NCBI GenBank assembly: GCA_964415355.1
Contig: CAYPYS010000002.1
Coordinates: 8,048 to 72,047 of the forward strand
DNA: 64,000 nucleotides
Reading direction: 5' to 3'
Source: an uncultured Planctomycetia bacterium
GTDB lineage: Bacteria > Omnitrophota > Gorgyraeia > Gorgyraeales > Gorgyraeaceae
Shown: positions 45,471 through 53,191 of the stretch, piece after piece
Position numbering within the stretch: the stretch's first letter is position 1
How the letters are laid out: every line of letters starts with the position of its first letter
Translations under genes and position numbers: made by a program
Notes under the pieces: generated by a model
Told to the model about the DNA's origin: nothing
What the model saw: the letters and a program-made list of their open reading frames with translations, nothing else
Database searches by the model: none

Positions 45471-45510
45471 GTAAAACCTTCACGGCGAAAGCTGTGAGGG
45501 TTTTTTATTT
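45471..45510 (+). terminator. terminator cassette copy 1 (ccttcacggc gaaa gctgtgaggg plus T-run)
   Basis: hairpin with G-U wobbles plus tttttt; near-identical copies at 45972 and (minus strand) 55371. Confidence 0.6.
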
Positions 45511-45567
45511 TTGACCCCGTCGCCATAAATCCTGAGATATTGGCCGATTGGTGATCCCTGCGACTTA

Positions 45568-45596
45568 TTGACTATTTTGAAGACAGGGTGTAGAAT
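45568..45596 (+). promoter_or_regulatory. promoter TTGACT-17-TAGAAT (promoter cassette copy A, 45523-45617)
   Basis: about 95-bp block nearly identical to 47284-47387. Confidence 0.6.
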
Positions 45597-45617
45597 GAAA
45601 TTAAGTGGGAGGTGCAT

Positions 45618-45890
45618 ATGGACTGGAAGATATTTTTGGCAACGTTTAGCGCTATATTTCTTGCAGAACTTGCAGATAAGACACAGTTTGTTGGTATTGG
45701 CATGTCAGCGAAGTCAGGGAAACCTTTATCGGTTTGGCTTGGCTCTATATCCGCGTATATCATTGTTACTGCTATCACGGTTTTGATCGGAGCTACTCTA
45801 GGAAAGTACATAAAACCCGAGATCGTAAGATATACTGGCGCATCGCTATTTGTAATAATCGGAATTTTGATGTTTTTCGGGAAAATATGA
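45618..45890 (+). CDS. UPF0016 (GDT1/TMEM165) family membrane protein, single-repeat form
   Basis: ELADKTQ motif; 3 TM helices; ATG 45618 after GGGAGG. Confidence 0.6.
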   Translation: MDWKIFLATFSAIFLAELADKTQFVGIGMSAKSGKPLSVWLGSISAYIIVTAITVLIGATLGKYIKPEIVRYTGASLFVIIGILMFFGKI

Positions 45891-45971
45891 AACCTTGACA
45901 AACCTGTGATCCCGATGTAAACTATGACTACAATTAAATAATGTCCCGTGTTTGAAGGATGAAATCCCGGA

Positions 45972-46012
45972 CAATAATAAAGTAAAACCTTCACGGCGAA
46001 AGCTGTGAGGGT
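45972..46012 (+). terminator. terminator cassette copy 2
   Basis: same hairpin plus T-run as 45471-45510, preceded by the same gtaaactatgaYtacaattaaat block. Confidence 0.6.
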
Positions 46013-46038
46013 TTTTTGTTTTATATAACTCCGTGCTA

Positions 46039-46139
46039 TTACCTAACAAATATATTAGAAGTACTGTTTGTTAGGTAACTTTCCTTATTGACATTTGTTA
46101 CCTAACAATGTATACTATTTAATAGAGTGTTAGGTAACA
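46039..46139 (+). promoter_or_regulatory. operator array: four TTACCTAACAA half-sites forming two inverted-repeat pairs overlapping promoter TTGACA(46088)-17-TATACT(46111)
   Basis: 46039-46050/46067-46078 and 46097-46108/46128-46139 read directly. Confidence 0.55.
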
Positions 46140-46151
46140 AGGGGGTGCAAT

Positions 46152-46469
46152 ATGGGCGTTATAAAAGGAGCCTTGAAAGAAGAGCTTGAAAATTCTCTGC
46201 GCATGAAGAAGGAATATGAAAAGGCCTTAAAGGAGCTTCCGGATGGATGCTTGGCCGAAAAGAAGATACGCGGCCATAAATATTATTATTTAGTCAAAAG
46301 GTTCCATAAGAAGGTCAAATATATCTATAAAGGTAAGCTTTTAAAGGAAGAGGTCGCTAAATACAACGACGCTAAGATCCTAAGGGCTAAATACAGAAAA
46401 TTGCTGTCGCAGGTTAAAAAGCAGATAAGGTTTTTAAGGAGTAGTCTACGTGGAAAAGAATCAATATAA
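46152..46469 (+). CDS. small basic hypothetical protein (candidate regulator/antitoxin of the downstream nucleotidyltransferase)
   Basis: overlaps downstream gene by 20 nt; strongly regulated promoter. Confidence 0.35.
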   Translation: MGVIKGALKEELENSLRMKKEYEKALKELPDGCLAEKKIRGHKYYYLVKRFHKKVKYIYKGKLLKEEVAKYNDAKILRAKYRKLLSQVKKQIRFLRSSLRGKESI

Positions 46470-47124
46470 ACTATGCCTCGAGGTCCTCAAGCGGTTTAAT
46501 AAAGCAGGTATTCTGGACGGATTCATTTTGATAGGCAGCTGGTGCCTGTATTTTTACAAGGCCTATTTCAAGAAAACCCCATATATAGATGTTTCTACGC
46601 TTAGAACCAGGGATATAGATTTTTTAATACCTATTCCGCCAAAGATTAGGAAAAGCGTTGATGTGCCAGAGCTACTCAAGGATCTTGGATTTGTGACGGA
46701 TTTTAAAGGAAGCAGAGGCTACATAAAGCTCGATCACCCTGACCTTATATTGGAATTTTTAGTACCGGAAAAAGGCAGAGGGGATGACAGGCCTTACAGG
46801 TTGCCACAATTAGGTATGAACGCTACGTCATTAAGGTTTCTAAGTTTTTTAATGGATAACGTTATCCGAATCAAGGTAGAAGATTTTTATATCAATGTAC
46901 CGCATCCCGCGAATTTCGCATTGCATAAACTTATTATTTTTCAGAGGAGAACAAAGGAGTATAAGGTTTTAAAAGATAAAAATACAGCTATTGGAGTTCT
47001 AAGGGCATTGCTCGATAAAGGCGAAGGCCATATAATCAAAAAGACACTGGGATCTGTTCCTCAGAAGTGGAAGAAAAAGATTATCAAAGGATTGGAGGGA
47101 GAGAAAGCGCTTCATATTTTCTAA
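46450..47124 (+). CDS. nucleotidyltransferase-fold protein (AbiEii/MNT-like GS...RxxDIDF motif)
   Basis: LIGSW...TLRTRDIDFLIP. Confidence 0.4.
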   Translation: MEKNQYKLCLEVLKRFNKAGILDGFILIGSWCLYFYKAYFKKTPYIDVSTLRTRDIDFLIPIPPKIRKSVDVPELLKDLGFVTDFKGSRGYIKLDHPDLILEFLVPEKGRGDDRPYRLPQLGMNATSLRFLSFLMDNVIRIKVEDFYINVPHPANFALHKLIIFQRRTKEYKVLKDKNTAIGVLRALLDKGEGHIIKKTLGSVPQKWKKKIIKGLEGEKALHIF

Positions 47125-47220
47125 TCTCATCTCAGTCGTACGTTCGAAGGGGTTCACTGCGACTCTAAACAATTAAAACCTTCTTTTGTCAACCGTACCA
47201 CCAAACAAAAGGAGGTTTTA

Positions 47221-47322
47221 ATGCTTATAGCCAAGGTTTTCCGACTTATCCTGATAACCATAATCTTCATAATAGCTTACCTTCCGATCACTATAAATCC
47301 TGAGATATTGGCCGATTGGTGA
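47221..47322 (+). CDS. 33-aa hydrophobic peptide (MLIAKVFRLILITIIFIIAYLPITINPEILADW), type I toxin-like or leader peptide
   Basis: RBS AGGAGG sequestered in hairpin aaaaccttcttttg..caaaaggaggtttt; paralogue on minus strand at 54869-55030. Confidence 0.35.
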   Translation: MLIAKVFRLILITIIFIIAYLPITINPEILADW

Positions 47323-47335
47323 TCCCTGTGACTTA

Positions 47336-47364
47336 TTGACTATTTTAGAGGATGAGGGTAGAAT
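47336..47364 (+). promoter_or_regulatory. promoter TTGACT-17-TAGAAT (promoter cassette copy B, 47284-47387)
   Basis: near-identical to copy A. Confidence 0.6.
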
Positions 47365-47372
47365 GAAATTAA

Positions 47373-48161
47373 ATGGGCAGCGCATATATGAATAAGAAAC
47401 CATTAAGCAAGATGACTCAAGATGAAATAAAAGAGGCAGTTAAAGAAAAATACAGCAAAGTGGCAAAAGAACCCTGCGTTTCGTTTAACTTCCCGGTAGG
47501 AAAGGCTTTTGCTTTAAAAGTAGGTTATCCTAAAGATATACTTGGCAGACTTCCTCGATCCATGTATGAATCCTTTACAGGCGCCAATAATCCTCAACCT
47601 TTTGTGGAGTTAAAAGAGGGAGAAACAGTCTTAGATTTAGGGTGTGGGGCAGGATTAGACCTTTATTTTTATGCAAAAGCAGTAGGAACTAATGGTAAGG
47701 TCTATGGCTTAGATATTTCGCAAGATATGATCAGTAAGGCAAGAGATAATATGGAAGCAGCAGGAGTTAAGAATGCAGAAATTAAATGCGGCCACTCCGA
47801 TAGCCTTCCTTTTGAAGATAATTTTTTTGATATTGTAGCCTCAAATGGAATCTATAATCTATCACCTAACAAAGAAAAAGTTATGAAAGAAGTATTCAGG
47901 GTATTGAAGCCCGGAGGTAGAACTGTTTTTAGTGAAGTTGTTCTAAAAGACAGCCTCCCGGAAAGCATAAAAAAGAATATTGATGACTGGTTTCGGTGTA
48001 TAGGTGGCGCATTGCCTGAAAGAGATTTTTTAGCACTTATGGAAAAGGTTGGATTTAGGAATATAGAGGTTATATCAAAAGTCAGGAATGCCAGAACAGG
48101 TCATAAGTTAGCCATTTGTGCCAACATCCGCGGTTATAAGGGAGGAGTTTTAAATGGATAA
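47373..48161 (+). CDS. ArsM-like class I SAM-dependent methyltransferase
   Basis: VLDLGCGAGLD motif I; DIVASNGIYNLSPNKEKVMKEVFRVLKPGGR matches the ArsM/UbiE-like core, but the GCGNP Cys motif is replaced (TGANNP); alternative start 47388. Confidence 0.55.
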   Translation: MGSAYMNKKPLSKMTQDEIKEAVKEKYSKVAKEPCVSFNFPVGKAFALKVGYPKDILGRLPRSMYESFTGANNPQPFVELKEGETVLDLGCGAGLDLYFYAKAVGTNGKVYGLDISQDMISKARDNMEAAGVKNAEIKCGHSDSLPFEDNFFDIVASNGIYNLSPNKEKVMKEVFRVLKPGGRTVFSEVVLKDSLPESIKKNIDDWFRCIGGALPERDFLALMEKVGFRNIEVISKVRNARTGHKLAICANIRGYKGGVLNG

Positions 48162-50453: not shown

Positions 50454-50571
50454 AATATCCCTACCAATCCTTTTTTAAATACTTATAGTGTTTGTAATAC
50501 TACCTAACAACCCCGCCCCTATCAACCTCTTCCTTGCTGTAAGCTGTGCTAAAATAAGACACTGCTATCGA

Positions 50572-51422: not shown

Positions 51423-52364
51423 TTAAATAATTTTAGTTATAATCTTATATAATTCTTTCAGCTTATTTGCAACTTCTTTGTCTTCTTTGATCTTGCTGTC
51501 CATCCTTTTTAATTTATTAACTAGAGACTCTATTTCTTTTTTTAAATTCCTTTCTTGGTAAGCATCGGCGACAGATTCATTGTAAGCATCTTCTATCCTA
51601 TATTTTGGATTGTTTATTAACTTTTTAATTATAGGGATTGCTTTTTTACTTGGAACGCCTGCTTTCTCAGAACGAGCTATTTTGCTAACATCTCTTAATT
51701 TAACAATGTTAGATATTACACCATCTTTATACTTTTTAAAAAATCTTTGCATTATTTTTTCTTTAGAGTTACTTTCTAAAACTTCGGGCATATATCTTTC
51801 TATTGCCCTGCTTGCTTTCATGGCCTCCAAAAAGAAATCCTCCGAAAATTTTTGTTCTGCCTTGGGTTTTGAAAGCTCTTTTCTTAATAGATTTAAATAT
51901 TTCGTGGGCAAACTTAGTATATCAAAAGCTCTTTTTGCAGTTGCGGGAGTAATGCCTGTTACCGCTGTTATGTCTTTCAAAGAATAAGGCTTATTTTCTT
52001 TTTTTAATAAATTCTCTATTTCTTTAAGTTTCAGTGCTGTTGCAAACAAGTCCCATTGAACACGAACATTATGTATATTGAACATTCTTAAAATATTCTC
52101 TAGCCTAGTTGGCCTTGGTTCAATTATGGTAGGAACGCGAGATAAATTTAACTTCTTAGCACACAACCAGCGCCTTTCCCCATCAAGTAATATATACCTA
52201 TTACTTTTAACATCTTCATAAATAGCTAAAGGAACTCTAATGCCTACTTTTTGTATAGAATTTAATAGGACTTGGAGCTCTTCTTCTCTAAAAATTATAC
52301 GTGGATTATCTGGATTTCTCTTGATTTTGTCTGGATTAATATTGGCTAATCTGGTTCCTGACAT
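51423..52364 (-). CDS. ParB/Srx-fold (ParB-like nuclease domain) protein
   Basis: NPDNPR...LLNSIQKVG...RYILLDGERRWLCAKKL...VP ParB N-terminal signature. Confidence 0.6.
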   Translation of the reverse strand: MSGTRLANINPDKIKRNPDNPRIIFREEELQVLLNSIQKVGIRVPLAIYEDVKSNRYILLDGERRWLCAKKLNLSRVPTIIEPRPTRLENILRMFNIHNVRVQWDLFATALKLKEIENLLKKENKPYSLKDITAVTGITPATAKRAFDILSLPTKYLNLLRKELSKPKAEQKFSEDFFLEAMKASRAIERYMPEVLESNSKEKIMQRFFKKYKDGVISNIVKLRDVSKIARSEKAGVPSKKAIPIIKKLINNPKYRIEDAYNESVADAYQERNLKKEIESLVNKLKRMDSKIKEDKEVANKLKELYKIITKII

Positions 52365-52384
52365 AACCTGTCTCCTTATTTAAT

Positions 52385-53191
52385 TTAAAAATTTGTTATT
52401 ACTAATTCTGGGACTTTTTTTCTCTTCTTTACATTCCCTGCTATCAAGCTTCTTCTTTTAACAAGAGTTAAATTGAAATTCTTATACAACCTTCTTATAT
52501 AATCGTGCTCTGCATTGCTCATGATAATCTTGCATCCTTTTTTATCAAGCTCAACAACAGCATCTTTTAAGCGATTTTGATCTTTTAATGAAAATATTCT
52601 CGAATTATATTCTATAAAACCATTATTTTTATGTGAAGTAGTATAGGGAGGGTCTAAATAAATTAAATCACCTTCCGTAGTATCTTTTACTGCTTTTTCA
52701 AAATCAAGACCTCTTATAGTTACATTTTTTAATATCTTACTAACATTTTTTAATTTCTCTTCGTCGCAAATCGTCGGATTATCATATCGGCCTATAGGAA
52801 CATTAAATCTACCTTTGGGATTAACTCTATACAAACCGTTCCAGCATGTTTTATTAAGGTAGATAAATCGGGCAGCCCTTCTTAAATTATTTGACAATCT
52901 CTGTGAACGAATGTTGTAATAGTATTTCTTCTGGTAGGGCATATTTTTTAAAAATTTTATAACTCCGCCAACATTTCTTTTTATTTGTTGATAGCTATTT
53001 ATTAATTCTGAATTTAAGTCTGATAAATATGCTTCTTTAGGTTCTAATGCAAAAAACAAAGCACCACTACCCAAAAAGGGCTCAAAATAGCGGTTGTAAT
53101 TTTTTGGAATAATTTTTAGTAGTTCAGGTAATAGAGCTTTTTTGCCACCTGCCCATTTCAAAAAAGGCCTAGTAGTAACTTTTTTACTCAT
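52385..53191 (-). CDS. Dam-family (alpha-class) N6-adenine DNA methyltransferase
   Basis: FLKWAGGKK...EPFLGSGA motif I; DPPY motif IV. Confidence 0.85.
   Translation of the reverse strand: MSKKVTTRPFLKWAGGKKALLPELLKIIPKNYNRYFEPFLGSGALFFALEPKEAYLSDLNSELINSYQQIKRNVGGVIKFLKNMPYQKKYYYNIRSQRLSNNLRRAARFIYLNKTCWNGLYRVNPKGRFNVPIGRYDNPTICDEEKLKNVSKILKNVTIRGLDFEKAVKDTTEGDLIYLDPPYTTSHKNNGFIEYNSRIFSLKDQNRLKDAVVELDKKGCKIIMSNAEHDYIRRLYKNFNLTLVKRRSLIAGNVKKRKKVPELVITNF

Follow-up and report, generated by a model that had tools for sequence, protein, structure and literature searches.

A four-site operator over the promoter of a two-gene cassette: a probable autorepressed, toxin-antitoxin-like operon with a PF12281 nucleotidyltransferase

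The autorepressed toxin-antitoxin operon is a well-known arrangement. It has been shown that Rv2827c represses the MenT4 operon via two pairs of inverted repeats, the downstream one of which straddles the promoter (PMC7319586), and that MenT toxins block growth by extending the 3' ends of tRNA and are neutralised by diverse antitoxins, including the 68-aa MenA1 (PMC10435456). The arm-type domain of tyrosine integrases is a helix-backed sheet of three strands that recognises about 10 bp of DNA through the major groove (PMC2831311). Here we describe a locus in a 64-kb stretch of DNA (called the window below) whose cassette combines a DUF6788-like protein with a PF12281 nucleotidyltransferase (NTase), two families on which we found no experimental work, and is abundant in poorly studied phyla. 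We propose, with a probability of roughly 0.72, that the four sites at its promoter form the operator of an autorepressed toxin-antitoxin-like operon, whose small protein would bind the inverted sites, repress the operon and neutralise the NTase. The DNA-binding partner in it probably represents a new type.

A sequence-only reading of this DNA had noticed a promoter overlaid by two pairs of half-sites, and all its pairs and coordinates proved correct: four copies of TTACCTAACAA make up two inverted pairs, 46039-46078 and 46097-46139, with perfectly complementary arms (Table 1). A repeat search of the window recovered both inverted repeats with 12-nt arms that are 100% complementary, and the second pair (sites 3 and 4) can be extended to arms of 19 nt. 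Counted with 12-nt arms, the spacers are 16 nt between sites 1 and 2 and 19 nt between sites 3 and 4; if the site is defined as the 11-mer TTACCTAACAA, the two pairs share one geometry, an 18-nt gap and 29-30 bp from centre to centre, and the 10-mer cores start 30 bp apart in both. The consensus promoter that had been read there, TTGACA-17-TATACT, is confirmed as well, with a 17-nt spacer, 11 of 12 consensus positions and the top place among promoter-like sites within 45500-47500. Transcription is predicted from the promoter spacing to start near 46123-46124, and the second pair does cover the spacer and the +1 region, as had been claimed, with site 3 in the former and site 4 at about +5 to +16.

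Table 1. Coordinates of the cassette features and of the terminator preceding them, in positions of the window
Feature	Position	Strand	Remarks
Operator site 1, left arm of IR1, TTACCTAACAAA	46039..46050	+	about -85 to -74 from the predicted transcription start; position kept in 41 loci
Operator site 2, right arm of IR1, TTTGTTAGGTAA	46067..46078	-	just upstream of -35
-35 hexamer TTGACA	46088..46093	+	
Operator site 3, left arm of IR2, GTTACCTAACAA	46097..46108	+	inside the -35/-10 spacer, about -27 to -16
-10 hexamer TATACT	46111..46116	+	between the IR2 arms
Operator site 4, right arm of IR2, TGTTAGGTAACA	46128..46139	-	about +5 to +16; abuts the ribosome-binding site
Ribosome-binding site GGGGGTG of the 105-aa ORF	46141-46147		
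105-aa basic protein, proposed operator-binding repressor/antitoxin	46152..46469	+	DUF6788-like; ATG start
Ribosome-binding site AAGGAG of the NTase ORF	46436-46441		
224-aa PF12281 (NTP_transf_8, 'GSU2403 family') nucleotidyltransferase, proposed toxin	46450..47124	+	GTG start
Intrinsic terminator of the upstream GDT1-family gene	45984..46015	+	14-bp stem; outside the cassette

At one mismatch or fewer, TTACCTAACAA matches six times in the 64 kb against 1.38 expected, a number reached in none of 100 shuffles, and four of the six matches fall within 100 bp. The motif search that had been suggested as a check came out in two ways within the window: the motif is enriched at this promoter, and outside the four sites it is not enriched. 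A fifth half-site had been placed near 50497; its sequence, CTACCTAACAA, is indeed present at 50500-50510, at chance level and partnerless. This match and the sixth one, at 47862, both mismatch at a T that the 41 aligned operators always or almost always keep, neither has a partner 30 bp away, and their count is that of chance, and for these reasons they were dropped from the system.

The gene upstream of the cassette encodes a 92-aa GDT1-family (PF01169) membrane protein (window 45612-46015), and its strong terminator insulates the cassette from upstream. Between the stop codon of this gene and the terminator there is a second promoter-like site, TTGACA-17-TAAACT (45895-45923). Downstream, on the minus strand at 51423-53191, lies the region previously noted as a restriction-modification island; as read from ORF translations only, it holds a 268-aa ORF with a DPPY motif, typical of adenine DNA methyltransferases, and an adjoining 313-aa ORF that looks ParB/nuclease-like.

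The layout of the operator turned out to be widely shared. A scan of one genome per species yielded 52 loci encoding relatives of the small protein, spanning Omnitrophota, Planctomycetota, Elusimicrobia, Nitrospirae, Zixibacteria, Saganbacteria, Clostridia, Lentisphaerae and others, so that the cassette has a patchy distribution in at least eight phylum-level groups. The promoter-straddling pair was found in 50 of 53 cassettes seeded on the small protein and both pairs in 41 of 53, the spacing within a pair being 30 bp in 86 of 91 pairs and the distance from site 2 to site 3 looser, at 27-29 bp. In 44 of 50 loci TTGACN stands upstream of site 3 by exactly 10 nt, with the -10 box between the arms, and in the alignment of 41 operators (A2) the -35 bases T53, T54 and G55 are invariant and A56 and C57 at least 90% conserved. 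Such geometry, with sites 30 bp apart bracketing the -10 box, is unusual and very rigid; arms so placed are too far apart for a conventional compact dimer, and a picture of two reading heads some three helical turns from each other suits the unit better. Between site 2 and the -35 hexamer most loci also conserve a tract rich in T (consensus TTTTTT; A2 columns 46-57; window 46079-46087), which is weaker in the window, CTTTCCTTA, and may be an UP-like or bending element.

In the window the GTG start of the NTase overlaps the small ORF by 20 nt, and this overlap is kept in 46 of 52 small-protein-seeded loci, while loci seeded on the NTase, which serve as an unbiased check, have the small gene, the 20-nt overlap and the operator in four cases out of four. 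The flanking genes differ, and none is shared between loci. Nucleotide homology to other cassettes starts at 46032-46039, that is at site 1, and stops by 47108 inside the NTase gene; the operator is therefore the left end of the mobile cassette. Judged from these comparisons, the cassette is a self-contained and horizontally mobile two-gene unit, of which the window has no other copies. Even a distant family member that is only 34% identical (L053, a relative of P0349) has four sites, TACCTAACAT and TTGCCTAACAT, around a TTGCTC-17-TATATT promoter; a metagenome scan with P0349 as the query gave a single locus. For finding the cassette in metagenomes, the signature TTRNCNNACA-N20-TGTNNGNYAA beside TTGACA can be used.

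The sites also vary together. Among the 41 aligned operators, arm positions T4, T5, A11 and C12 and their partners are invariant and two central positions vary; across phyla, little or no variation is seen at 6 to 7 of the 12 arm positions. When the arms are paired, 92.3% of the cells are complementary; with slid partners the share is 30-50%. Both sides have changed in eleven arm pairs, and no observed measure was reached in any of 500 shuffles. Within a locus, the four sites vary jointly and track the clade of the small protein: CCYAAC sites belong to the clade containing the window, CCATAC sites to a second clade, and in a Nitrospirae clade the left arms read CCTTAC and the right arms CCATAC, with further variants (GYCATAC, AACCAAC, GCCTAAC and CCAAAC) confined to single lineages. 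Residues 25, 33, 36 and 57 of the small protein fully separate the CCYAAC and CCATAC clades, 33, 36 and 57 being in the predicted sheet; positions 48, 49 and 53 separate them nearly, and residues 78-103 of the C-terminal helix are invariant across clades. A reading head that co-evolves with its site would leave such a pattern, but shared ancestry is a confounder. Taken together, the layout, the co-variation, the clade tracking and the edge of the cassette lend comparative support to the earlier suggestion that a repressor operator set sits on the promoter of the small-protein and nucleotidyltransferase pair, with the 105-aa protein as the candidate that binds it.

Two further peculiarities of the sites can be mentioned. 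The Nitrospirae arrangement, CCTTAC on the left and CCATAC on the right, is found consistently in both pairs of L020, L023, L031 and L044, and this asymmetry is not explained by a simple two-fold symmetric binder. The sites of the window are themselves near-palindromic (TTGTTA-CC-TAACAA, with an asymmetric CC/GG centre, at 46095-46108 and 46126-46139). We rejected this as a feature of the system: it is missing from the operators of the CCATAC class and is for that reason probably incidental in the window.

The 105-aa protein is strongly basic (pI 10.1), and its sheet carries 11 K/R against 2 D/E. An AlphaFold2 monomer model built with 48 sequences (pLDDT 89.9) consists of a helix at 2-28, strands at 33-39, 42-51 and 54-61 and a helix at 65-100, so the predicted shape is a helical hairpin capped by a three-stranded beta-sheet. 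The most conserved residues across the wide family, P30, G32, Y44, Y46, R50, Y59 and G61, are those of the sheet. No helix-turn-helix was found in the protein by Pfam scan, in the AlphaFold2 model or by structure search. The family is large, with more than 1000 close homologues, and at 50% identity it falls into 460 clusters, almost all made up of stand-alone proteins 100-115 aa long. The window protein itself found no family match in Pfam, NCBIfam, PADLOC or PDB, and searches of NCBIfam, PADLOC and PDB with the small protein, as a single sequence or as profiles, returned noise only. Many homologues at 75-90% identity carry a weak precomputed match to PF20586 (DUF6788); the window protein is unmatched by this model at E <= 1, and 13 of 62 family representatives match it, the best at E 3.7e-4. 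No mention of DUF6788 was found in a literature search.

A possible key to the way in which this protein would read DNA comes from its distant relatives. P0349, which is 34% identical over the full length (E 4e-15), reaches with residues 36-75, its sheet, the Pfam gathering score for Arm-DNA-bind_1 (PF09003; 22.8 against 22 bits, E 9.6e-5), and P0357 gives 15 bits for the same model. Weaker than these are matches to PF13356 (Arm-DNA-bind_3), in 2 of 48 members (E 0.079), and to PF07935 (SSV1 D-335), and Foldseek matched the P4-type arm domain 3rmp_C at E 1.5. A three-stranded antiparallel sheet followed by a helix, as in the arm-type domain, is present in the AlphaFold2 model; the window protein as such did not match the arm-domain models. 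When the family profile was compared by hhalign with P4-type and lambda Int N-domain sequences, the expected strands were aligned, at probabilities of 9% and 0.6%, which are not significant. Because of this, and of a single match at threshold level, we treat the arm-domain link as a lead and not as established homology.

Structure searches with the model of the small protein gave only helical hairpins and prefoldin beta, a subunit that resembles it in topology by matches that are not significant. Prefoldin is a chaperone subunit without a DNA role, and the likeness probably reflects a simple shared architecture. In rare cases the domain of the small protein is fused to others, namely to an NTP_transf_2/Pol-beta minimal (MNT-type) NTase in P0365 and to Peripla_BP_3 plus AraC-type helix-turn-helix regulators in P0319 and P0364. 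Such fusions suggest a portable partner of NTases and of transcription regulators, and they may also be artefacts of gene calling.

The second protein of the cassette, of 224 aa, matches PF12281 at E 8.5e-23 over residues 11-187, and its homologues are named by NCBI 'GSU2403 family nucleotidyltransferase fold protein'. In a Pfam scan at E <= 0.1 it gave PF12281 only, with no DUF1814/AbiEii match, and there were no matches in PADLOC and NCBIfam; a literature search for PF12281, NTP_transf_8 and GSU2403 brought up only the locus tag GSU2403 in an IHF study. The catalytic residues are intact, G29, S30 and D55 being invariant and D57 at least 90% conserved among homologues, and the fold of the AlphaFold2 model (pLDDT 86.8) is closest to MenT toxins.

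In L008, L013, L031, L027, L034 and L049 the NTase has suffered a frameshift, interruption, truncation or loss, with the small gene and the operator intact, and the orphan small genes of L027, L034 and L049 keep their operator without an intact NTase. In a set of loci mostly seeded on the small protein, such decay of the NTase first would fit a toxin. The MenT-like fold, the intact catalytic residues and the decay of the NTase give indirect support to toxicity, and several marks of toxin-antitoxin systems are seen in the cassette: an overlapping gene pair, a palindromic operator over its own promoter and a patchy mobile distribution with unrelated flanks. One finding counts against the antitoxin reading, namely the higher conservation of the small protein (75-90% identity, vs 60-68% for the NTase); an antitoxin is not usually the better conserved partner. 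On balance we lean slightly to the view that the NTase would be a toxin.

Two of the decayed loci show rearrangements of their own. The HEPN-MNT module pairs a minimal NTase with a HEPN protein. At L034:3318-4435 the PF12281 NTase is a short N-terminal remnant behind an intact small gene and operator, and the remnant precedes a gene for a winged-helix plus minimal-NTase protein (MNT-like, 201 aa), after which comes a 136-aa HEPN-like gene; by sequence, the toxin module of this locus appears to have been swapped for an MNT-HEPN pair. In L013 (3296-3457 and 5607-6308) the NTase gene has an interruption about 54 codons in, and some 2.7 kb farther downstream there is part of a second cassette copy, which may be an insertion or a tandem duplication.

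From the information discussed above, the following mechanism can be proposed. The 105-aa protein would bind each 11-12 bp site via its three-stranded beta-sheet head, in the manner of integrase arm-binding domains, and a symmetric oligomer of the long helical hairpins would hold two heads for inverted sites 30 bp apart, a distance of about three helical turns that would bring the heads to about the same face of DNA. The grounds for giving the small protein this role are the co-variation of sites and protein clades, its charge and its likeness to an arm-binding domain. Occupation of sites 3 and 4 would exclude RNA polymerase and switch off the operon's own transcription, and sites 1 and 2 (about -85 to -46) would add a second unit, probably cooperatively. 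The NTase is predicted to be translationally coupled to the small gene and to be catalytically intact, with its MenT-like fold; like the toxin of a toxin-antitoxin module, it would most likely be neutralised by the small protein. Autorepression of the operon by the small protein is, as a separate part of this scheme, a likely one in our estimate.

Type II toxin-antitoxin systems show conditional cooperativity, and one can suppose that the operator is read only by the complex of the small protein and the NTase, or chiefly by the NTase, with the small protein alone binding poorly. The 20-nt overlap of the genes in nearly all loci would agree with that, the invariant C-terminal helix of the small protein could well serve as a protein-protein interface, and a bridging complex could account for the rigid 30-bp spacing. 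However, the orphan small genes retain their operators intact without the NTase, the NTase is almost all catalytic domain (11-187 of 224) with no recognisable DNA-binding module, and the residues that go with the operator class sit in the sheet of the small protein, so we regard reading by a complex as unlikely.

A different role for the repeats would be that of recombination or mobility sites, bound in the arm-type manner to move the cassette, with the overlap of the promoter being secondary. The resemblance of the sheet to the integrase arm-binding domain speaks for this, as do the mobility of the cassette and the coincidence of its left boundary with site 1, but no recombinase is conserved beside the cassette, no matching sites are present at its right end, and recombination would not demand the base-exact -35/-10 register observed in 44 of 50 loci. 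We find this idea quite improbable.

Complementary and co-varying arms cannot alone tell a fold from a symmetric protein site, and the repeats could in principle be RNA or DNA hairpins (an attenuator, a processing site or a cruciform). Yet three of the four arms (both of pair 1 and the left one of pair 2) lie upstream of the predicted transcription start, the upstream terminator blocks read-through, and the arm sequence itself is conserved across phyla, unlike stems, which drift freely. The leader folded no better than shuffles (z 0.87), no family reached threshold in an Rfam search, and an RNA element was rejected on these two results; for hairpins as a whole we leave a very small chance. As for a host transcription factor encoded elsewhere, which would bind the sites with the cassette proteins uninvolved, it is the least credible of the alternatives, with nothing specific in its favour: in at least eight phylum-level groups the sites accompany the cassette between unrelated flanks, they vary with the clade of its own protein, and the 64-kb window shows no enrichment of the motif beyond them.

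Returning to repression by the small protein, if it binds as proposed, the DNA-binding folds of antitoxins would be joined by an arm-type beta-sheet head carried on a helical spacer, a function could be assigned to two domains of unknown function, and the site variants that track the clades would lend themselves readily to studies of DNA reading by a beta-sheet. A bolder suggestion, offered tentatively as one that we would not ourselves bet on, is that the 105-aa protein founds a new class of bacterial repressor/antitoxin, with an arm-type sheet on a rigid coiled-coil 'ruler' in a symmetric oligomer, 11-bp sites 30 bp apart and heads clamping the -10 box and the start, and that the PF12281 ('GSU2403') NTases may be a large unrecognised MenT-like branch, common in Omnitrophota and other uncultivated phyla.

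Of the closest known systems, the lambda Int N-domain (PF09003) shares with the small protein a sheet and a helix and reads sites of about 10 bp, a size that agrees with the 11-12 bp here; unlike tyrosine integrases, the small protein has no recombinase domains, it carries its sheet as an insertion at the turn of a long helical hairpin, and the function that we propose for it is transcriptional. The cassette differs from the HEPN-MNT module in having no HEPN gene, an MNT-HEPN pair occurring only as the replacement in L034. MenA1-MenT1 (Rv0078B-Rv0078A) has no sequence similarity to the cassette, and neither a DNA-binding sheet nor an operator has been reported for MenA1; modification of tRNA 3' ends is a demonstrated feature of MenT1, whereas for the PF12281 NTase the likeness is one of fold. 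The closest functional precedent for the four-site operator is Rv2827c-Rv2826c (MenA4-MenT4). The repeats of Rv2827c and AbiE are 23 bp long with gaps of 3 or 13 bp, while the sites here are of 11-12 bp and stand 30 bp apart from centre to centre; AbiEi is a two-domain winged-helix binder, in contrast to a 105-aa helix/beta-sheet/helix protein with no helix-turn-helix; and the AbiEii and MenT4 toxins belong to DUF1814, whereas the NTase of the cassette belongs to PF12281 and shares with them, by prediction, the MenT-type fold.
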